25,018 nt of DNA, from the UHGV virus genome UHGV-0289694, one strand, 5' to 3'. A program made the position numbers and the translations under genes. The stretch comes from a virus. The notes under the pieces are model-generated. The model saw nothing but the letters and a program-made list of their open reading frames with translations. It made no database searches and was not told where the DNA came from. Shown in pieces: positions 1,917 through 13,750 of the stretch. Position 1 is the stretch's first letter. Each line of letters begins with the position of its first letter.

Positions 1917-2933
1917 TTAAACCAAAGTATACAAAGGGTTTTTTGTTACAGCATCTTCAAGATGATCCGGAGAAAAGTGAGCGTAAACCATCGTCATTTT
2001 TATGTCAGCATGACCAAGAATATCTCGCAGTACCAGTATATTTCCGCCGTTCATCATAAAATGGCTGGCGAATGTATGGCGCAGTACGTGGGTGCACTGG
2101 CCCTCTGGCAACTCGATGCCGGCTCGCTTTACTGCTCGTTCAAAGGCTTTTCTACATGGCGTGAATAACTTCCCTCTGTTCTTCGGGAGTTCGTCATACA
2201 GTTCCTGTGATATCGGTACTGTTCTGTTTTTCTTGCCTTTGGTCTTTGTATAAGTAATTCGGTATTTCGATATTTGGTGACCCTGCAGGTTTTCTGCTTC
2301 ACTCCATCGTGCACCAGTAGCCAAACATATTTTTGCAATCATTAGTAGGCTGGCATTTTGAGATTCGGCGCAGGCATTAAGCAGGCGTTTGATTTCGTCC
2401 GCGGAAAGAAAAGCTAGCTCACCTTCGGCAATTTTGAAGGTCGGAAGTCCTGCCAGCGGGTTTGGTGCTGACCAGTGTCCTAGTTTTTTTAATGTACCGA
2501 ACACCGATGATAGATTGCGCTGTTCAAGGTTTACCGTGCGGGGCTTAACGGGCGACATAAGCGTGCCATCTTCATTTCGTACTTCACCTTTTAACCGTGC
2601 TTCACGGTATTTCGTAAAGTCACCAGCTGTCAGTTCTGAGGCGATGGGATCGCCTAGACCATTACAGATAATTCTAAGTTTCGCCATGAGGCGCTTGGGG
2701 TCTGCGAGTGTTTGACCATACAGGGAATACCACTGCTCAATTAATTCTGATAGGTGTCGCCGATCTTCCTTTTCCCCCAGCCATGGTTTTTTGTTCACTT
2801 CTTCCATTGTGAAGCTTTCAAAAGCAATGGCTTCGCCTTTCGTAGCAAATTGCTTACGCACGCGCTTGCCATTGCGTCCATTGGGATAGCACTCGCACAA
2901 CCATTTACCGTTTGGCTGTTTTCTGACAGTCAT
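1917..2933 (-). CDS. int: Phage integrase, tyrosine recombinase (P2/186 type)
   Basis: 338 aa; C-terminal catalytic region VLRHTFASHF...LGHADIKMTMVYAHF carries the H-x-x-R and catalytic Tyr signature of tyrosine recombinases; sits next to att and the repressor. Confidence 0.95.
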   Translation of the reverse strand: MTVRKQPNGKWLCECYPNGRNGKRVRKQFATKGEAIAFESFTMEEVNKKPWLGEKEDRRHLSELIEQWYSLYGQTLADPKRLMAKLRIICNGLGDPIASELTAGDFTKYREARLKGEVRNEDGTLMSPVKPRTVNLEQRNLSSVFGTLKKLGHWSAPNPLAGLPTFKIAEGELAFLSADEIKRLLNACAESQNASLLMIAKICLATGARWSEAENLQGHQISKYRITYTKTKGKKNRTVPISQELYDELPKNRGKLFTPCRKAFERAVKRAGIELPEGQCTHVLRHTFASHFMMNGGNILVLRDILGHADIKMTMVYAHFSPDHLEDAVTKNPLYTLV

Positions 2934-3964: not shown

Positions 3965-4474
3965 ATGTTTGATTACAAGATTTCCAAACATCCGCATTTC
4001 GATGAAGCCTGTAGGGCTTTTGCACTGCGTCACAACCTGGTGCAACTGGCAGAACGTGCAGGCATGAATGTGCAGATTCTGCGGAACAAGCTGAACCCAG
4101 CTCAGCCTCATTTATTAACCGCACCAGAAATTTGGTTGCTTACCGATCTGACTGAAGATTCAACGCTGGTAGATGGTTTTCTGGCACAGATTCATTGTCT
4201 GCCATGTGTTCCGATTAATGAGGTGGCAAAAGAGAAACTGCCACATTACGTCATGAGTGCAACCGCAGAGATCGGGCGTGTTGCTGCTGGTGCGGTATCT
4301 GGCGATGTAAAAACCAGTGCAGGTCGTCGTGATGCTATCAGCAGTATTAACTCTGTAACACGACTGATGGCGCTGGCTGCTGTTTCATTGCAGGCTCGTT
4401 TACAGGCTAACCCTGCGATGGCGAGTGCAGTTGATACCGTGACTGGCCTTGGTGCTTCATTCGGTTTGCTGTGA
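3965..4474 (+). CDS. cII: CII-like lysogeny establishment regulator (186 CII type)
   Basis: 169 aa; the sequence [45 protein letters not shown]... closely resembles 186 CII as I recall it (HTH near the N-terminus); position directly after apl. Confidence 0.8.
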
Positions 4475-6063: not shown

Positions 6064-6917
6064 GCACCATCCTGAAATGGGCGGGAAATAAAACCGCCAT
6101 TATGTTCGAACTGAAAAAACATCTTCCTGCTGGTCCGCGACTGGTTGAACCTTTCGCGGGTTCCTGTGCAGTGATGATGGAGACGGATTACCCCAGCTAT
6201 CTTGTTGCGGATATTAATCCTGATTTAATCAACCTCTATAAAAAGGTTGCTGCTGATTGTGAGGCGTTTATATCTCGTGCCAGAGCTTTATTTGAGGAAG
6301 CAAACAGAGAGGTGGCTTATTACAACATAAGGCAGGAGTTTAATTACTCCACTGAAATTACTGATTTCATGAAAGCGGTATATTTTCTGTATCTCAATCG
6401 TCACGGTTACCGTGGTTTATGTCGCTATAACAAGAGCGGGCATTTCAACATTCCCTACGGTAATTATAAAAATCCGTATTTCCCTGAAAAAGAAATTCGC
6501 GCATTTGCAGAAAAAGCCCAGCGAGCAACGTTTATCTGCGCCAGCTTTGATGAAACGCTGGCGATGTTGAAGGCGGGGGATGTGGTGTATTGCGATCCGC
6601 CGTATGACGGTACGTTTTCCGGCTATCACACTGATGGTTTCACTGAAGATGACCAGTATCACCTGGCATCCGTTCTTGAACATCGGTCATCAGAAGGACA
6701 TCCGGTCATTGTTTCTAACAGTGACACATCCCTGATCCGTTCGCTGTATCGCAATTTTACTCACCACTATATCAAGGTAAAACGCAGCATCGGTGTGGCA
6801 GCTGGCGAGGGTAAATCAGCAACAGAAATCATTGCTGTTTCCGGGCCGCGCTGCTGGGTGGGATTTGATTATTCGCGTGGCGTGGATAGTTCTGCCGTGT
6901 ACGGAGTACGTGCATGA
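6060..6917 (+). CDS. dam: DNA adenine methyltransferase (Dam-like, N6-adenine)
   Basis: N-terminal ILKWAGNK...EPFAGSCAV (AdoMet-binding motif I) and the DPPY catalytic motif ([10 protein letters not shown]); GGAGG RBS; ATGA overlaps with TraR-like upstream and gene A downstream. Confidence 0.9.
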
Positions 6918-9307
6918 GCCATGCCGATATGAACAACTGCTGCGGCTTTAACGAGGTTGCCGCAGCGTTCTCATGGAACAGCCCGAAAAAGGCCATTAAC
7001 CCTTATCTGGACCCGGCGGAAGTTGCGCCGGTTTCTGCGCTTTCAAACCTGATCACTCTGTACGCTGCCGATAACGAGCAGGAACAGTTGCGCCGCGAGG
7101 CACTGAGTGATCAGGTCTGGGAGCGTTATTTTTTTAATGAATCACGTGATCCTGTCCAGCACGAAATGGAGCAGGATAAGCTCATTAGCCGGGCAAAGCT
7201 GGCGCATGAGCAGCAGCGTTTTAATCCGGATATGGTCATTCTGGCGGACGTCAACGCCCAGCCTTCTCATATCAGCAAGCCGCTTATGCAACGTATTGAA
7301 TACTTCAGCAGCCTGGGCAGGCCAAAGGCTTATTCCCGCTATTTACGTGAGACGATTAAGCCATGTCTGGAACGACTGGAGCATGTACGCGACAGCCAGC
7401 TATCTGCATCTTTTCGTTTTATGGCAAGCCATGTAGGGCTGGACGGCCTGCTGATCCTGCCTGAAATGAGTCAGGATCAGGTGAAACGCCTGTCTACCCT
7501 TGTCGCTGCGCATATGAGCATGTGCCTTGATGCAGCTTGTGGTGATTTGTATGCCACCGATGACGTTAAGCCAGAAGAAATCCGCAAGACATGGGAAAAG
7601 GTGGCAGCGGAAACCCTGCGTCTGGATGTCATCCCGCCTGCGTTTGAGCAACTCCGTCGGAAAAGAAACCGCCGTAAACCCGTGCCCTATGAACTCATTC
7701 CGGGTTCGCTGGCGCGTATGTTGTGCGCCGACTGGTGGTACCGGAAATTATGGAAAATGCGTTGCGAATGGCGGGAAGAGCAGTTGCGTGCTGTCTGCCT
7801 GGTCAGCAAAAAAGCATCTCCCTATGTCAGCTATGAAGCCGTGATGCATAAACGTGAGCAGCGCCGCAAGTCACTGGAGTTTTTCCGTTCTCATGAACTG
7901 GTGAACGAAGAGGGCGACACGCTGGATATGGAAGACGTGGTAAACGCCAGCAGCAGCAACCCGGCGCACCGCCGCAATGAGATGATGGCCTGTGTTAAAG
8001 GTCTGGAGCTTATCGCGGAAATGCGCGGTGACTGCGCCGTTTTCTACACCATTACCTGTCCGTCACGTTTCCATTCCACGCTCAATAACGGCAGACCAAA
8101 CCCAACCTGGACAAATGCGACGGTAAGACAAAGCAGCGATTATCTGGTCGGCATGTTTGCTGCATTTCGTAAGGCGATGCACAAAGCCGGGTTGCGCTGG
8201 TATGGCGTGCGGGTGGCTGAGCCGCATCATGACGGTACAGTTCACTGGCACCTGTTGTGTTTCATGCGCAAAAAAGACCGCCGCGCCATTACTGCATTGT
8301 TGCGTAAATTTGCCATCCGTGAAGACCGCGAGGAACTGGGTAATAACACTGGTCCACGCTTTAAATCTGAGCTGATAAACCCGCGCAAAGGAACGCCGAC
8401 AAGCTACATCGCGAAATACATCAGTAAGAACATTGACGGGCGTGGTCTGGCTGGCGAGATCAGCAAGGAAACGGGTAAATCCCTGCGTGATAACGCTGAA
8501 TACGTTAATGCCTGGGCGTCTCTGCATCGTGTTCAGCAATTCCGCTTCTTTGGCATTCCGGGGCGTCAGGCTTACCGTGAACTGCGATTGCTGGCTGGTC
8601 AGGCGGCAAGGCAACAGGGTGACAAAAAAGCAGGTGCGCCGGTACTGGATAACCCGCGCCTTGATGCCATTCTGGCTGCAGCTGATGCTGGTTGCTATGC
8701 CACCTACATCATGAAGCAGGGCGGCGTACTGGTTCCCCGTAAATATCACCTCATCAGAACCGCTTATGAAATCAACGAAGAGCCGACCGCCTATGGCGAT
8801 CACAGTATTCGTATTTATGGCATCTGGTCACCCATTGCAGAGGGCAAGATCTGCACTCATGCAGTGAAGTGGAAAATGGTTCGTAAGGCCGTTGACGTTC
8901 AGGAGGCGGCAGCCGACCAGGGCGCTTGCGCCCCTTGGACTCGTGGCAATAACTGTCCCCCTGTTGAAAATTTGAACCAGACAGGGGGGGAGCTGCCCGA
9001 TATTAAAACCATGAATGAGCAGGAACTGCAGGATTACCTACACAATATGGGCCAGAAGGAACGCCGGGAGCTGACAGCCAGGTTGAGACTGGTAAAACCG
9101 AAGCGGAAAAAAGCATACATACAGAGTATTTCGGAGCAACAGCGCCTGCAGCTTGAGGCAGAACTCAGCTCCCGGGGATTTAATGCAAGCGATGCTGAAG
9201 TGGATCTACTTTTACGTGGCGGCAGCATTCCGTCAGGTGCCGGGCTGCGTATTTTTTACCGCAAACACCGGCTGCAGGAAGATGACAAATGGCGGCAGTG
9301 GTACTGA
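6914..9307 (+). CDS. A: Rolling-circle replication initiator (P2 gpA-like HUH endonuclease)
   Basis: 797 aa; HUH-type motif VHWHLLCF and active-site tyrosine motif [12 protein letters not shown]; size and position match P2 A / 186 A. Confidence 0.9.
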
Positions 9308-9386
9308 CAGCAAGGCTTTAACAATTCATGCTCTTAACGACTCTGCGCCAGAGTGTTCTCATTGACGGATAAAAAATATTTTACAT

Positions 9387-9422
9387 TTGAATACCAGGGG
9401 TGTACTGTATATATATACAGTA
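9387..9422 (+). promoter_or_regulatory. SOS-regulated promoter: -35 TTGAAT, 17-nt spacer, -10 TATATA, overlapped by a perfect LexA box TACTGTATATATATACAGTA (9403-9422)
   Basis: The 20-mer is the palindromic consensus LexA operator (CTGT-N8-ACAG) and covers the -10 hexamer. A second palindrome GTATGCATGCATAC follows at 9420-9433. Confidence 0.75.
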
Positions 9423-9469
9423 TGCATGCATACAGCTATCGTGTGTCCGTGGTCGTGATAGGAGGGAAG

Positions 9470-9658
9470 ATGCAGGACTATCTTTTGGAGTCGTTGAAGC
9501 TCCAGCGCATTGATTTTTTTATTAAGCTTGTAGCGGCTAGTGAGTGTAACGACGAAGAAAAGCGGCTGGCTATCCAGTGGGTTTCGGAGTTGACCGATGA
9601 GCTTATGGCGAAGATTCGCGCTCATGAATACAACCGCTCAATGGATCTTCCTGGTTAG
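9470..9658 (+). CDS. Small SOS-controlled protein, possibly a Tum-like antirepressor
   Basis: 62 aa; GGAGGGA RBS; first ORF downstream of the LexA-boxed promoter. 186-type phages carry a LexA-repressed tum gene at this map position, but I did not recognise Tum or DinI sequence similarity. Confidence 0.4.
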   Translation: MQDYLLESLKLQRIDFFIKLVAASECNDEEKRLAIQWVSELTDELMAKIRAHEYNRSMDLPG

Positions 9659-9799
9659 TTTTTCAAAGCTGAAAACAACCGAGTGAAAGTTACGACGCTT
9701 GAACTTTTAACTTGGGTTACAATCAGAACACTCGTTTTCGTTCACAAACGAACCTGCCATACCCTAATGTGGTAATGGCGTTCAATTTTTACTAAATGG

Positions 9800-10360
9800 T
9801 TGCAAATGCTTGTTATGAATCATGTAATGTTAGATATAGAAACATTGGATGTTGAAAAAACGGCTTATATCCTTTCGGTTGGTGCGGCTTTCTTCGTGCC
9901 GGAGACTGGCGAGGTTGGTCCGGGTTTCTATCAAGTTATTTCGCTTGATCATGAACAAGCAGGCAGAACCATTGCCCCCTCCACTGTAAAGTGGTGGATG
10001 TATCAAAGTTCTGAAGCTAAAAACGAAAATTTTGGTGGCACTAAGGACCTTTTAGACGTTCTGAATGAATTTGTGGCGTTTGTTCTTCATAATCGTAATG
10101 GCCGAGTAAAAGTGTGGGGAAACGGGAAAGAGTTCGACTGCACTATCATGCATCATGCCCTGTCACAGGCAGGTCTGGAGTGCCCATGGTCATTCAGAGA
10201 TACTCTTGACGTCAGAACCATCTTAGCGCTTGGTGAAAGCAAAGGAATTTTTTCTCATGCTGACAAAAAGTTCACTGGCATCAGGCACACAGCATTCGAT
10301 GATGTTTTATTTCAGATCGCACTGGTTTCTCATATCTATATGAATTTAAATAAAAAATAA
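9800..10360 (+). CDS. DnaQ-like DEDDh 3'-5' exonuclease (start may be at 9815 or 9827)
   Basis: Exo I motif MLDIETLD (D-x-E), Exo II WGNGKEFDCTIM, Exo III HTAFDDV (H-x4-D); ~180 aa single-domain protein; lower GC than phage core genes. Confidence 0.8.
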   Translation: MQMLVMNHVMLDIETLDVEKTAYILSVGAAFFVPETGEVGPGFYQVISLDHEQAGRTIAPSTVKWWMYQSSEAKNENFGGTKDLLDVLNEFVAFVLHNRNGRVKVWGNGKEFDCTIMHHALSQAGLECPWSFRDTLDVRTILALGESKGIFSHADKKFTGIRHTAFDDVLFQIALVSHIYMNLNKK

Positions 10361-10375
10361 ATATAGGACTTAGCT

Positions 10376-11287
10376 ATGGATTGCTTAGATGTAACCAATT
10401 GGACTGAGCTAGATGTTTTCGCACAATATCCTGTTGGTGCTCGCTCTAAGGCATTGGTTATTTCCCCTGATGTAGCACCCCATGGTATCAAAGCATCGTG
10501 GCCGTATCTTTTTAAGAGAAGTATTAAAAAGTATCCAGATCAATTTTGGTGTGAGATCGTTGCCTACAGGATTGGATTGAAGCTTGGTTTTGATGTCCCC
10601 AAAGCAGTTCCATCGGTAAAGACTAATGATTTGGGGCATACGTTTTGCGGGGCCCTCATTGAGTGGTTTCATCATAAAGATTATGAGAAATTTGCTCCCG
10701 CTGGTGATTACTTTGTCCGAAGAGATCCAAATTTTGATCGCGAGAAAGGAGCTCAGCATTCCCTTGAAGGGCTGAGGATTATCGCGAAAGCTCTTAAAGT
10801 TGACTATGTTGAGTGGTTGGAGGACATGGCTCTCTTTGACGCTGTGATAGGTAATACAGATAGACATCAAGAAAATTGGGGGTTTGTCTTTTCACCTTTA
10901 GCCAGCGAGTGTCAGCTTGCACCATTTTTCGATAATGGTACGAGCTTATGTTACGAACGCTTTCCGGAGCATGTTGCCGATTGGACCGATCATAGACTCA
11001 GGGAGCATGTTGGCCGGGGAAGGCATCATTTGCGTAAGACTCTGGGCAAAGATGAGTATCAGAGATTAGGTCATTTAGAGTTCATCAAAGAACTTTGTGA
11101 TAAAAAAGAAGCATTAAAACAGCGGGTAGCTGAAAAACTGGCTCTTTTGAACCATGATTTTTGGGAGTCAACTTTTGCGGAGTTGACGGAAATAAACTGC
11201 CCTGTTCCGCTGACTAGAGAACGTGCTGCATGGATTGTTCGTGTAACAAACATGCGTATTGAACTGATTAAAGGTGTTACTTCATGA
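10376..11287 (+). CDS. HipA-like Ser/Thr kinase core (HipT-like, lacking the HipA N-terminal subdomain)
   Basis: P-loop-like PVGARSKALV (cf. HipA VAGAQEKTAL), catalytic motif VIGNTDRHQEN (cf. HipA GATDGHAKN; Asp at nt 10859), Mg-binding LAPFFDNG (cf. HipA TPFYD); 303 aa; 15-nt gap after the exonuclease gene. Confidence 0.8.
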   Translation: MDCLDVTNWTELDVFAQYPVGARSKALVISPDVAPHGIKASWPYLFKRSIKKYPDQFWCEIVAYRIGLKLGFDVPKAVPSVKTNDLGHTFCGALIEWFHHKDYEKFAPAGDYFVRRDPNFDREKGAQHSLEGLRIIAKALKVDYVEWLEDMALFDAVIGNTDRHQENWGFVFSPLASECQLAPFFDNGTSLCYERFPEHVADWTDHRLREHVGRGRHHLRKTLGKDEYQRLGHLEFIKELCDKKEALKQRVAEKLALLNHDFWESTFAELTEINCPVPLTRERAAWIVRVTNMRIELIKGVTS

Positions 11288-11988
11288 CTATCTTAATAGA
11301 AAACATTCCCATGCCCAGTAGGCTCTTACTGACATGGCAACCGGTTGACGGAGGCTCTCGCTATGTCGTTGGTGAGCTTCTTCAAGATGAGTCTGAAGGC
11401 TACGAGTTTAATTATCTTACTGATAGCAAAGATTTTGCTAAAGCTAGGGATAACGGCTTTCGCGGTTTTCCTGCTTTTGATATAAAAGTTGCGACTCATC
11501 GCAAAGACGTTATGCAAACCTTTTCAAGAAGGTTACCCTCCAGGAAAAGAGAAGATTTTGACGATTACTTGCTGACGTTTCGTCTTCCTGCTGATTTTAG
11601 AGAGAATGACTTCGTTTTGCTCGCATGTACTGGCGGAAAAGTTGCTAGTGATGGTTTTTATTTTGTCCCAGACTTGTCTTCTGTTCGGCCACCTTTCGAT
11701 TACGTCATGGAGGTCGCTGGAACGAGGCACATGATCAAGGAAGGGCGTCTAGCGCTTGATGAGATATCAATTGGTGATGAAGTCATATTGCGGAATGAAG
11801 ATACCAATACGGTTGATCCGCTGGCCATATTGGTTACGAAAAACGACAATCATCTCGGATATGTCAACAAGGCATTGTGCGCCGCATTACGTGATCTAAG
11901 TAAAAACCATGATGTCAGTGGAGTGGTCGTACGTAAAAATGGCTCTTCGGATAGGCCTTTGATTTATGCAAAAGTATCCGTTCGGTGA
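11284..11988 (+). CDS. Two-domain protein: HipA N-terminal-like (HipS-like) domain fused to a HIRAN-like domain
   Basis: ATGA start/stop overlap with the kinase gene. N-terminal LLLTWQPVDGGSRYVVGELL...FSRRLP...LLACTGGKVASDGFYFVP parallels HipA residues 1-100 (KLVTWMNNQRVGEL...FDNLLPD...IGRDSVGAVTLIP). C-terminal DEVILRNEDTNTVDPLAILVTKNDNHLGYVNKALCAALRDL...VSGVVV fits the HIRAN pattern (L-x-L-x-R-E-x-x-N-x-x-D-x-x-A-I-x-V ... G-Y/H-hydrophobic ... A-x-x-L-A-x-x-hydrophobic-D). Domain calls are from motif memory, not a search. Confidence 0.6.
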   Translation: MTILIENIPMPSRLLLTWQPVDGGSRYVVGELLQDESEGYEFNYLTDSKDFAKARDNGFRGFPAFDIKVATHRKDVMQTFSRRLPSRKREDFDDYLLTFRLPADFRENDFVLLACTGGKVASDGFYFVPDLSSVRPPFDYVMEVAGTRHMIKEGRLALDEISIGDEVILRNEDTNTVDPLAILVTKNDNHLGYVNKALCAALRDLSKNHDVSGVVVRKNGSSDRPLIYAKVSVR

Positions 11989-12089
11989 AGCATGTTTATT
12001 CATGCTTGCCGGTAATAAGGTGCTCTTGATTTAGTGCATGTCTATGCCGCATAAATCCGCATGATCGTTTGATGATCGTTTTAGCTGAG

Positions 12090-12117
12090 GCCCGCCAGGA
12101 ATGGCGGGCTTTTGCTT
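12090..12117 (+). terminator. Rho-independent terminator ending the accessory operon
   Basis: GCCCGCCA-GGAA-TGGCGGGC (8-bp GC-rich stem) followed by TTTTGCTT. Confidence 0.65.
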
Positions 12118-12158
12118 ATGTCATGCAGGCGCATGAAAACTGCTACATAAAGCGGGCA

Positions 12159-12177
12159 GGCGTGGCGGGGATACGAG
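12159..12177. other. Putative cos site (cohesive-end sequence)
   Basis: GGCGTGGCGGGGATACGAG; the first 13 nt match the 186/P2 cohesive-end sequence as I recall it (GGCGTGGCGGGGAAAGCAT), and the location between the A-side accessory region and Q is as expected. From memory only. Confidence 0.35.
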
Positions 12178-12382
12178 CGCGCACTCTGGGGTAAAATGGT
12201 CAAAATCCACCGCAATTTACTGGCTCAGGAACGTAGTTAGTTTTGTAGGTATAAACGGCTCTCACGTTAGATAGGCATGCAGGATGTGTTAAATCGTTGT
12301 GATGAAGTTAACGGTGACTGAGACAGTTTAGGTCTAAGATATAACTTCTGGGTTAGTTAAAAATTGGAATAGTAAGACATTT

Positions 12383-12679
12383 ATGAAAACTACTTATAGC
12401 TATGATTTTCAATATATGCGCAAAGGTCAGGATCGCCCTGATGATGATGGAGAGGTTGTAGGGTGTAATTCAGAAGACAACTCGCTTTTGATGCTTCCAA
12501 ATGTGGGAGACTACGTAACAATTACGAATAAGGGTGGGCGTGCTCAATTTGATGGGCGGGTGAAAACAAGGCTTTTCAATTACCTACGCATTGCTGATGG
12601 TCATGTTCATTGCTCCATTTGCATTGTAGTTGAGGAAGTTGATATGGACTCCGTATGGGGGGCACTAATTAAAGAATAA
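12383..12679 (+). CDS. Hypothetical small protein between cos and Q
   Basis: 98-aa ORF, AT-rich, weak RBS, followed by a terminator hairpin; no motif recognised. It contains Asp-rich PDDDGEVVGC and a C-terminal HCSIC pair. Confidence 0.45.
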   Translation: MKTTYSYDFQYMRKGQDRPDDDGEVVGCNSEDNSLLMLPNVGDYVTITNKGGRAQFDGRVKTRLFNYLRIADGHVHCSICIVVEEVDMDSVWGALIKE

Positions 12680-12685
12680 TAGAAT

Positions 12686-12701
12686 GCCTGCAAATGCAGG
12701 C
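12686..12701. terminator. Bidirectional terminator hairpin between the 98-aa ORF and gene Q
   Basis: GCCTGC-AAAT-GCAGGC palindrome with T-rich flanks on both strands, between convergent genes. Confidence 0.5.
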
Positions 12702-12709
12702 GCTTTAAT

Positions 12710-13750
12710 TTACTCAGAAATATCTAAGTTGTAAGATTCAAAGCAAATCACTTTTTCACCTAGCCAGTTGTTCAGCTCTTGCAGCCGCTTTTGCAGTGGC
12801 ATCAGTTCATTGCGGACAAACACTCGACTAGCCTTCTCCACATCCCCAAACCCCCCGACATTATTAGGCATTATCCCCATCATTTGTGGCGGCACACGAT
12901 GCGCCGCCATCATGTCGTCCCGGCTCACGTTCTTGATATTCAGGAACTCATCCTTCGCCGCCACTTCTGACAACGGGATAATCTGAAGCCCGTCCTTTTT
13001 ACCGTTAGGCGAGTACATAAACAGGTTACGGAAGTTACCAGGACCTTTGGCGCTTTTCATCGCATTGCGGAGGTTGTTCACATCCTCCTGGTTCTGCGCA
13101 GCATCGGTCATGTACATGATGAAGCCTGCATGACTGCCGTTAATGTAATACTTGCGGCGGAACAGCGTGGCGGACTCGTTGAGCAGAGCTGACGGAATGG
13201 CAGAAAGATAACCGGGCAGGCCGTAGATCTCCTGGTTAATGTCCGGTTCCATCAGATGAAAAATGCTGCCTTTCGTGAACTGATACGGCTGGGTTGTCAT
13301 ACCGTATTGCACAAACCAGTAGGTATCCAGGTCTAACCCGCGTCGGGTGTATTTTGCCAGTGCAGGCTCAAGGGCGATAACTTCACCGAAGCGGTTCGTG
13401 CGTTTCTCCAGGTAGGCGTTACCAAAAACCAGATAGTCCTGCACAAAACGCGAAAAAGCCTGCTGGCTGAGCAGCGGGTGAGGGATGTAGGTGCTGGTCA
13501 GAATGTTGCATTTCACTGCAATTGGTGAACTGTGATGCACGGCAGCGCGGAAGGTGCGCGCCAGTCCGTCAAAGCTGACGGGAGGCTCATACCAGCGATC
13601 TGTCTGTACGCATTCCACATAGTCCAGCAGTTCGCGGCGGTCAAGTACTGGAATGGGATCACCGAAGCTGAATGCTTCGGCTGAAGCTTGGCTTTTATGC
13701 TGGATCTGGTTCGTCGCCGCAGCGCATTTTTTTTTACTCTTTCCCATCAA
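12710..13750 (-). CDS. Q: Portal protein (P2 gpQ-like)
   Basis: 346 aa; size, position downstream of the large terminase on the minus strand with start/stop overlap, and overall resemblance to P2 Q. Confidence 0.9.
   Translation of the reverse strand: MMGKSKKKCAAATNQIQHKSQASAEAFSFGDPIPVLDRRELLDYVECVQTDRWYEPPVSFDGLARTFRAAVHHSSPIAVKCNILTSTYIPHPLLSQQAFSRFVQDYLVFGNAYLEKRTNRFGEVIALEPALAKYTRRGLDLDTYWFVQYGMTTQPYQFTKGSIFHLMEPDINQEIYGLPGYLSAIPSALLNESATLFRRKYYINGSHAGFIMYMTDAAQNQEDVNNLRNAMKSAKGPGNFRNLFMYSPNGKKDGLQIIPLSEVAAKDEFLNIKNVSRDDMMAAHRVPPQMMGIMPNNVGGFGDVEKASRVFVRNELMPLQKRLQELNNWLGEKVICFESYNLDISE

Follow-up and report, generated by a model that had tools for sequence, protein, structure and literature searches.

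The 25,018-nucleotide stretch of the virus genome UHGV-0289694 analysed here (the window) is a 186/P2-like prophage, with genes for an integrase, a 186-type CI repressor, CII, Dam, gpA, portal and terminase. Between its gpA and portal genes lie two overlapping genes, hipI and hipN, encoding a short HipA-family kinase and a partner made up of one HipS-like domain and one HIRAN domain. They are preceded by the gene for a DEDDh 3'-5' exonuclease and, farther upstream, by a promoter-like element overlapping a LexA box. Judging by architecture and by matches to PADLOC and PHROG families, it is nearly certain that hipI and hipN belong to the hipIN family. The composite explanation favoured here, with a probability of about 0.5, is that the hipIN module and the exonuclease form one cassette encoding a DNA-end-gated, SOS-controlled kinase. 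HipA-family kinases owe most of their renown to antibiotic persistence, and hipIN, with its single-chain version hipL, is widespread. The features of the putative cassette and of the promoter region before it, all on the plus strand, are:

9380-9422, plus strand: promoter-like element, TTTACA at 9380-9385, a 17-nt spacer and TACTGT at 9403-9408, overlapping a LexA/SOS box at 9403-9422 (sequence match)

9815-10360, plus strand: DEDDh 3'-5' exonuclease, Rv2179c-like; mechanical open reading frame (ORF) from TTG 9800, probable start ATG 9815 (Pfam, phrog_255)

10376-11287, plus strand: hipI, 303-aa short HipA-family Ser/Thr kinase without N-subdomain-1, PADLOC PDC-M03A (Pfam, PADLOC and structure matches)

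11284-11679, plus strand: N-terminal HipS-like domain of hipN (about aa 1-132), homologous to N-subdomain-1 of HipA (Foldseek, Couple_hipA)

11689-11988, plus strand: C-terminal HIRAN domain of hipN (about aa 136-234) and stop codon (Pfam, PDB profile, Foldseek)

HipI contains all core motifs of Hip kinases, namely the ATP-binding lysine, the catalytic loop and the Mg-binding DxG. Its residues 21-208 align with positions 5-170 of the Pfam HipA_C profile (E = 6.3e-10). In 24 homologues with 36-54% identity, residues P19, G21, R23 and K25 (Gly-rich loop) and K47 are invariant, as are N160, D162, H164 and N167 of the catalytic loop IGNTDRHQxNWG and D186, N187 and G188 of the DNG motif. The closest solved structures are CtkA (3akj, 4.6e-7) and HipA (4pu5). 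On its sequence, HipI is a HipA-family kinase with intact catalytic motifs. Since the protein starts at the Gly-rich loop, it lacks N-subdomain-1.

The product of hipN (ORF 11284-11988) comprises 234 aa, and PADLOC PDC-M03B spans the whole protein. Residues 140-220 match Pfam HIRAN (E = 6.9e-8). A single-sequence phmmer search of HipN against the PDB gave no matches; a profile built from 34 homologues retrieved lp_0118 (9e-6) and HLTF HIRAN (3e-3) from the same database, with HipS remaining below detection. An AlphaFold model of HipN was obtained with a predicted local distance difference test (pLDDT) value of 94.9 and a predicted template modelling score (pTM) of 0.90. In this model the C-terminal domain matches HLTF HIRAN (Foldseek, E = 2e-5, template modelling score normalised to the target, TM(target), about 0.6); for the N-terminal domain the match is Legionella HipS, 8ezr_A (Foldseek, probability 1.00, TM(target) 0.72). 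Of 31 fused homologues of the kind described below, 16 have an equivalent middle domain that matches Pfam Couple_hipA, the N-terminal domain of HipA (best E = 8.1e-6).

Residues W18, F59, F65, R83, R89 and D91 are invariant in the HipS-like domain. In the HIRAN domain, N175 and G192 are conserved in all 34 homologues, Y193 in 33 and both R148 and K/R196 in 32, while position 178 is occupied by aspartate in 28 and by glutamate in five. In the hidden Markov model alignment from the profile search against the PDB, R71, N91, D94, H110 and K113, which bind the DNA end in HLTF, correspond to R148, N175, D178, Y193 and K/R196 of HipN.

This anatomy had been recognized in a preliminary description of the locus, made from the letters of the DNA and its open reading frames. 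The absence of the N-terminal subdomain from the 303-aa kinase is borne out by the HipA_C alignment beginning at residue 21 and by the start of the protein at the Gly-rich loop. The placement of HipS-like sequence at the N-terminus of a coupled downstream gene agrees with the 8ezr_A fold match, the Couple_hipA matches and the ATGA overlap, and the HIRAN fusion with both the Pfam match and the HLTF HIRAN-like fold adopted by the C-terminal domain in the model. The order is indeed reversed relative to hipBST, the HipS-like domain being encoded downstream of the kinase. The upstream exonuclease and the LexA box had been missed. The tentative mention, in the same description, of HipS-like/HIRAN fusions in surveys of HipA homologues is borne out by hipIN of Gerdes, Baerentsen and Brodersen (mBio 2021, PMC8262856).

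[quoted passage not shown] They also propose that HIRAN senses the DNA ends of invading phages or of replication intermediates, whereupon the kinase is switched on and the infection aborted. Neither the architecture nor the model of DNA-end sensing is new, and the family is hipIN. PADLOC likewise contains it as a candidate system, the proteins of the window matching PDC-M03A (1.6e-34) and PDC-M03B (5.8e-37) in overlapping adjacent genes. The present analysis goes beyond prior work in the exonuclease linkage, the view of the split and fused forms as one system, and the LexA box.

The stop codon of hipI (TGA, 11285-11287) overlaps the start codon of hipN (ATG, 11284-11286) as ATGA, an arrangement of translational coupling. 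Among 80 genome loci with a HipN homologue, HipI is encoded directly upstream on the same strand in 69, and four more are cut by the contig end; the same 4-nt overlap is found in 30 of these 69 pairs. The pairing of hipI and hipN is not due to chance. Coupling through ATGA would favour equimolar synthesis of the two proteins, as expected if HipN were an obligate activating subunit whose HipS-like domain completes the kinase fold and whose HIRAN domain merely localises the holoenzyme to DNA ends, the site of its substrates. This reading is also consistent with the role of N-subdomain-1 as an integral part of active HipA, which is general knowledge and is stated in the available text of Gerdes et al. 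(2021), and with the fused relatives, in which a single chain retains the three domains and is modelled confidently as a compact fold. We nevertheless consider it quite unlikely, given that HipS inhibits HipT in the only split systems studied, HipBST of E. coli and Legionella (literature cited in the available text of PMC8262856).

Among the close relatives of the pair, proteins in which kinase, HipS-like domain and HIRAN are naturally fused are common; they occur in P2-like prophages, isolated P2-like phages and many Enterobacterales. The product of the fused gene is a single chain of 547 aa encoded in the same hotspot, for example in Escherichia phage 899 and Yersinia phage GMG73, with 41-46% identity to the proteins of the window, and the fusion point is the same junction as the hipI/hipN overlap. 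The model of one fused homologue (P0182; pLDDT 88.6, pTM 0.89) suggests a compact, defined three-domain assembly. Its kinase part matches CtkA (TM(target) 0.74-0.76), HipA and HipT; sequential fold aligners are blind to the permuted N-subdomain contact in this model. The split (hipIN) and fused (hipL) forms are one system.

In Escherichia phage 899 (L082, PV533660.1) the fused gene is annotated from position 4128 (519 aa, MLWSP...), a start shared with Table S2B of Rousset et al. (2022). The ORF of this phage (4044-5687) and its homologues start at 4044 (547 aa), and the annotated start drops the Gly-rich loop (FPRGARDK).

In other Proteobacteria, the gene immediately preceding hipIN encodes HsdS, the specificity subunit of type I restriction-modification systems, in 11 of 57 cases, an integrase in 5 and an MmeI/Eco57I-type methylase in some others. 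The gap between HsdS and hipIN is often only 4-11 bp (loci L009-L079, e.g. L013 3670-5046, L019, L020, L042, L049 and L066), so that hipIN is repeatedly embedded in type I restriction-modification operons. Neighbours such as HsdS, integrases and methylases fit a defence-island gene. The exact HipN protein of the window occurs on 666 contigs; its RefSeq annotation is "HIRAN domain-containing protein", from Salmonella enterica and further Enterobacteriaceae.

Fusions and neighbourhoods bear on the question whether the pair is an ordinary addiction (toxin-antitoxin) module. HipN would then be a labile antitoxin whose loss frees HipI and kills cells that have lost the cassette or the prophage, while HIRAN would autoregulate in place of HipB, with no sensing of phages. 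HipA-family modules are classical type II toxin-antitoxin systems, and HipS is the antitoxin of HipT (available text of Gerdes et al., 2021). Neither the ORF list nor Pfam revealed a helix-turn-helix or HipB gene in 9300-12700, where the gene order of HipBST is thus absent, and another DNA-binding function would be needed for autoregulation. HIRAN domains, however, are known from HLTF to bind DNA 3' ends and not specific operators. The frequent single-chain fusions also fit poorly with differential proteolysis of a separate antitoxin, and the neighbourhoods are those of defence islands and restriction-modification operons, which leaves the addiction module with little probability. Selective proteolysis has no means of removing an "antitoxin" that is covalently attached, which makes conformational control more likely; the natural fusions suggest a stable assembly under conformational control, not the loss of a labile antitoxin. 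They likewise weigh against the simple labile-antitoxin version of the model put forward in the preliminary description.

The gene upstream of hipI encodes an exonuclease whose sole Pfam match is PF16473 (Rv2179c-like; E = 8.5e-51) and which belongs to the phrog_255 exonucleases. Residues D12, E14, D113, H163 and D168 are invariant, and the DEDDh active site is intact. The gap to hipI is 15 nt and includes an AGGA ribosome-binding site. An Rv2179c-like exonuclease is encoded directly upstream of hipI or of the fused kinase gene in 32 loci. A non-P2 instance is a locus of a Shewanella metagenome-assembled genome (L002), located beside groESL and an IS3 element.

The exonuclease has diverged in parallel with the hip proteins. 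Over 19 non-redundant P2-type loci, pairwise identities computed from multiple alignments gave Spearman correlations of 0.92 between exonuclease and HipN and 0.87 between exonuclease and HipI, versus 0.12 with portal, 0.18 with terminase and 0.31 with gpA. Within the fused group alone the correlations between exonuclease and hip proteins persist (0.81 and 0.79). The exonuclease is probably the third gene of the cassette. Its assignment to the P2 backbone was rejected on the basis of this co-divergence, of P2 hotspots that carry other cargo and no exonuclease, and of the Shewanella locus.

The linkage is strong within this lineage and not obligate. An obligate partnership with hipIN was rejected, as L002 is the only non-P2 locus with such an exonuclease, absence being scored by phmmer with the exonuclease of the window and by Pfam on the nearest upstream neighbour. 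In one hipIN locus of the P2 hotspot (L120) an Rv2179c-like exonuclease is absent within the 733 bp of sequence present. Exonucleases of this type are common in lambdoid and other phages without hipIN (609 phage records), and 80 viral loci with the closest relatives of the exonuclease contain neither hipIN nor P2 markers. In a neighbour-joining tree with midpoint rooting, the hip-linked exonucleases form two groups, with lambdoid exonucleases between them.

The promoter-like element upstream of these genes overlaps a perfect consensus LexA/SOS box, TACTGTATATATATACAGTA, at 9403-9422. The box is a 20-bp perfect palindrome and the single occurrence of CTGT-N8-ACAG in the window. It is followed by the gene for a 62-aa protein, the exonuclease gene, hipI and hipN, and a simple scan predicted no other comparable terminator between the LexA-box promoter and the hairpin at 12685. 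A simple sigma-70 scan found fewer promoter-like sites than in shuffled sequence and did not report the LexA-box promoter. In 24 of the 32 P2-borne loci that combine exonuclease and hip genes, a LexA box occupies the corresponding position after gpA and ahead of the exonuclease gene; the box of phage 899 precedes that gene by about 140 bp, without an intervening ORF. Because the box is conserved in these cassettes and also in P2-like prophages whose cargo differs, genes carried in this orientation in the hotspot are probably SOS-inducible, and the sequence indicates that the cassette is probably SOS-repressed. The box was rejected as a cassette-specific feature: E. coli T28R has a prophage that lacks the cassette but carries the box, followed there by a small ORF and DinI. 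A LexA box was found within 900 bp upstream of none of 77 non-P2 hipIN loci.

The perfect box and promoter, with no terminator before the genes, the recurrence of this arrangement in most P2-borne cassettes and, in phage 899, its position immediately before the exonuclease gene could alternatively point to a module that benefits the phage. Induced by the SOS response as an early function at prophage induction, it would remodel host translation, process the DNA ends of rolling-circle replication or exclude co-induced rival prophages. That Rv2179c-like exonucleases are a common accessory of phages without hipIN, and that a fused relative was negative in a defence test (see below), would agree with such a role. 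The LexA promoter, however, also precedes unrelated cargo such as DinI, and most hipIN loci are chromosomal and non-prophage, lack a LexA box and are often embedded in type I restriction-modification operons. This distribution implies a function of the core module independent of the phage life cycle, and we regard a phage-benefit role as unlikely.

The location of the genes supports their assignment to defence cargo. The gpA-gpQ region of P2-like phages has been identified as a hotspot for defence genes (Rousset et al., Cell Host Microbe 2022, PMC9122126), and the hip genes of the window, situated between gpA and portal, occupy the position by which that study defined it. The G+C content of the gpA-portal interval is about 0.42-0.45, versus 0.53-0.58 on the flanks. 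The arrangement found in the window, denoted "hypothetical + DUF5051 + HipA_C + HIRAN + ...", is catalogued in the supplementary table of the same paper, and its protein accessions are those annotated in E. coli N1420, whose prophage shares about 94% DNA identity with the window. An "Exonuclease + HipA" system (pFR108) was cloned there from E. coli TA255; its exonuclease and the one encoded by Escherichia phage 899 are identical, and its kinase is the fused form. In other P2-hotspot arrangements of the same supplementary table, DarT and Macro (DarTG-like) genes accompany a HIRAN protein that stands alone; HIRAN domains thus recur with DNA-targeting toxin systems in this hotspot.

The favoured explanation, a cassette encoding a DNA-end-gated and SOS-controlled kinase, can be outlined as follows. 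The LexA-controlled promoter at the entry of the hotspot would drive transcription, which would be weak in a quiet lysogen and stronger upon SOS induction. HipN would bind HipI via its HipS-like domain, supplying in trans the missing N-subdomain-1 and holding the kinase inactive, as HipS does with HipT. Since close relatives are single-chain fusions, HipI and HipN would constitute a stable sensor-kinase assembly instead of a toxin with a labile antitoxin. Binding of free 3'-OH DNA ends by HIRAN could cause a conformational change that releases kinase activity. The kinase would then phosphorylate a factor essential to the host, perhaps, on the precedent of HipA and HipT, an aminoacyl-tRNA synthetase, so that translation stops and the infection aborts. 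A DNA-end-triggered abortive-infection step of this kind is proposed tentatively, as a possibility to which we give less than even odds. If HIRAN gates the kinase on DNA 3' ends, the complex would be a bacterial nucleic-acid-sensing kinase.

In this outline the exonuclease could remove 3' ends or short oligonucleotides and thereby set the threshold of the sensor or reset it. Exonuclease, kinase and HipS-HIRAN protein might even constitute a three-component, SOS-gated sensor of DNA ends in which nuclease and HIRAN share a ligand, 3'-OH single-stranded DNA ends or very short oligodeoxynucleotides; this stronger version remains rather doubtful. A third of the NrnC-like, deoxydinucleotide-specific nucleases of Actinomycetes and Clostridia adjoin HipA and HIRAN genes (Mortensen et al., NAR 2025, PMC11706625). 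Because those clusters use a different DEDD family, a functional link between exonuclease and hip genes becomes more plausible. If the three-component reading is true, the occurrence of Rv2179c-like enzymes in proteobacterial phages and of NrnC-like ones in Actinomycetes and Clostridia would mean that the same logic was assembled twice, and the negative result with pFR108 would be explained by its LexA-repressed native promoter.

Several observations weigh against the cassette as outlined. The stacking tyrosines of HLTF, Y72 and Y93, correspond to H149 and V177 in HipN, and because of this replacement the ligand of its HIRAN domain may differ from that of HLTF. Most non-P2 or chromosomal hipIN loci have no adjacent Rv2179c-like exonuclease, and the co-divergence of exonuclease and hip genes could reflect physical linkage only. 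The LexA box is a feature of the phage backbone and not part of the cassette, since a P2-like prophage with other cargo has it too. The fused relative with its exonuclease, pFR108, was challenged with eight coliphages and is placed in Table S2B among the "additional tested systems" and not in the validated Table S2A (PMC9122126). Finally, the searched literature contained no experiment in which a hipIN or hipL member was shown to be toxic, to be neutralised, to bind DNA or to confer defence.

With regard to pFR108, 3 of the 8 extra P2 systems cloned in that study were active, and its systems were cloned with their native promoters (PMC9122126). Because the native promoter was used, the negative defence test could plausibly be due to repression by LexA in MG1655. 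The linkage to an exonuclease and the LexA box provide concrete handles for experiment.

The remaining features of the hotspot and of the prophage are:

1917-2933, minus strand: integrase, prophage gene

6914-9307, plus strand: gpA-type replication endonuclease, left border of the P2 hotspot (phrog_91, E = 1e-287; E. coli homologue annotated as replication endonuclease)

9470-9658, plus strand: small 62-aa ORF, phrog_698, with a strong ribosome-binding site (AGGAGG); a backbone gene at the hotspot entry, not cassette-specific

12383-12679, plus strand: 98-aa ORF, phrog_12676, function unassigned; same hotspot, between hipN and the terminator

12685-12702, no strand assigned: hairpin resembling a bidirectional intrinsic terminator, at the close of the hotspot, ahead of the portal gene (terminator scan)

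12710-13750, minus strand: portal protein (gpQ-type), right border of the P2 hotspot (phrog_68, E = 5e-177)

Homologous E. coli prophages carry matching annotation of these phage genes. E. coli N1420 and T28R each have an annotated homologue of the 62-aa ORF, which in T28R is followed by DinI. Pfam and PADLOC searches with the 98-aa ORF (12383-12679) gave no matches, and in E. coli N1420 its slot is occupied by an OLD-family ATP-dependent nuclease. The intergenic region between hipN and this ORF contains a tandem ATGATCGTTT repeat at 12061-12081 and a GC-rich hairpin at 12083-12116 (GGCCCGCCA/TGGCGGGC, then TTTTGCT), which could be an internal terminator missed by the simple scan. An Rfam scan of 9250-12750 revealed nothing meaningful. 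A 352-aa ORF on the minus strand (854-1912) lies immediately downstream of the integrase gene, where the G+C content is about 0.30. The product of this ORF has a hydrophobic N-terminus, transmembrane-like by eye, and no Pfam or PADLOC matches; situated at one end of the prophage, the gene may be a moron or serve in exclusion.

Among known systems, the genes of the window share with hipIN (Gerdes et al., 2021) the short core kinase with an N-terminal Gly-rich loop and the downstream gene combining HipS-like and HIRAN domains. There is no structural difference from the description in the available passages of that paper, in which the P2/186 hotspot, the exonuclease and the LexA-box promoter do not appear. 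The PADLOC candidate PDC-M03 differs in being a two-gene system that does not include the exonuclease. With hipL, represented by phrog_26212 and pFR108, the window shares the three domains and their order, the P2 hotspot position, the type of exonuclease and the LexA box; the domains form one polypeptide there and are encoded by two overlapping genes here.

As in HipBST of E. coli O127 and Legionella, the HipA fold is divided between a core kinase and a small protein resembling the N-subdomain, and the kinase part of the fused model matches HipT structures (7ab3-5, 8ezr and 8ezs). Unlike in HipBST, the order is reversed, with the HipS-like domain located downstream and carrying HIRAN. The diDNase-HipA-HIRAN clusters (PMC11706625) likewise place a DEDD-superfamily 3'-5' exonuclease beside HipA and HIRAN genes, on mobile elements near defence genes. 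Their nuclease, however, is NrnC-like and specific for deoxydinucleotides, whereas that of the window is Rv2179c-like and, with GNGKEFDCTIM in its EXOII region, does not carry the diDNase signature HHAxFD(L/I)xF with a C-terminal Tyr. The HIRAN domain of HLTF (4s0n, 4xzf and 5bnh) has the same fold as that predicted for HipN, with TM(target) of about 0.6, and counterparts of five of its DNA-end-binding residues are kept, with the two stacking tyrosines replaced; in HLTF this domain is part of a SWI/SNF helicase, whereas in HipN it is joined to a putative kinase regulator.

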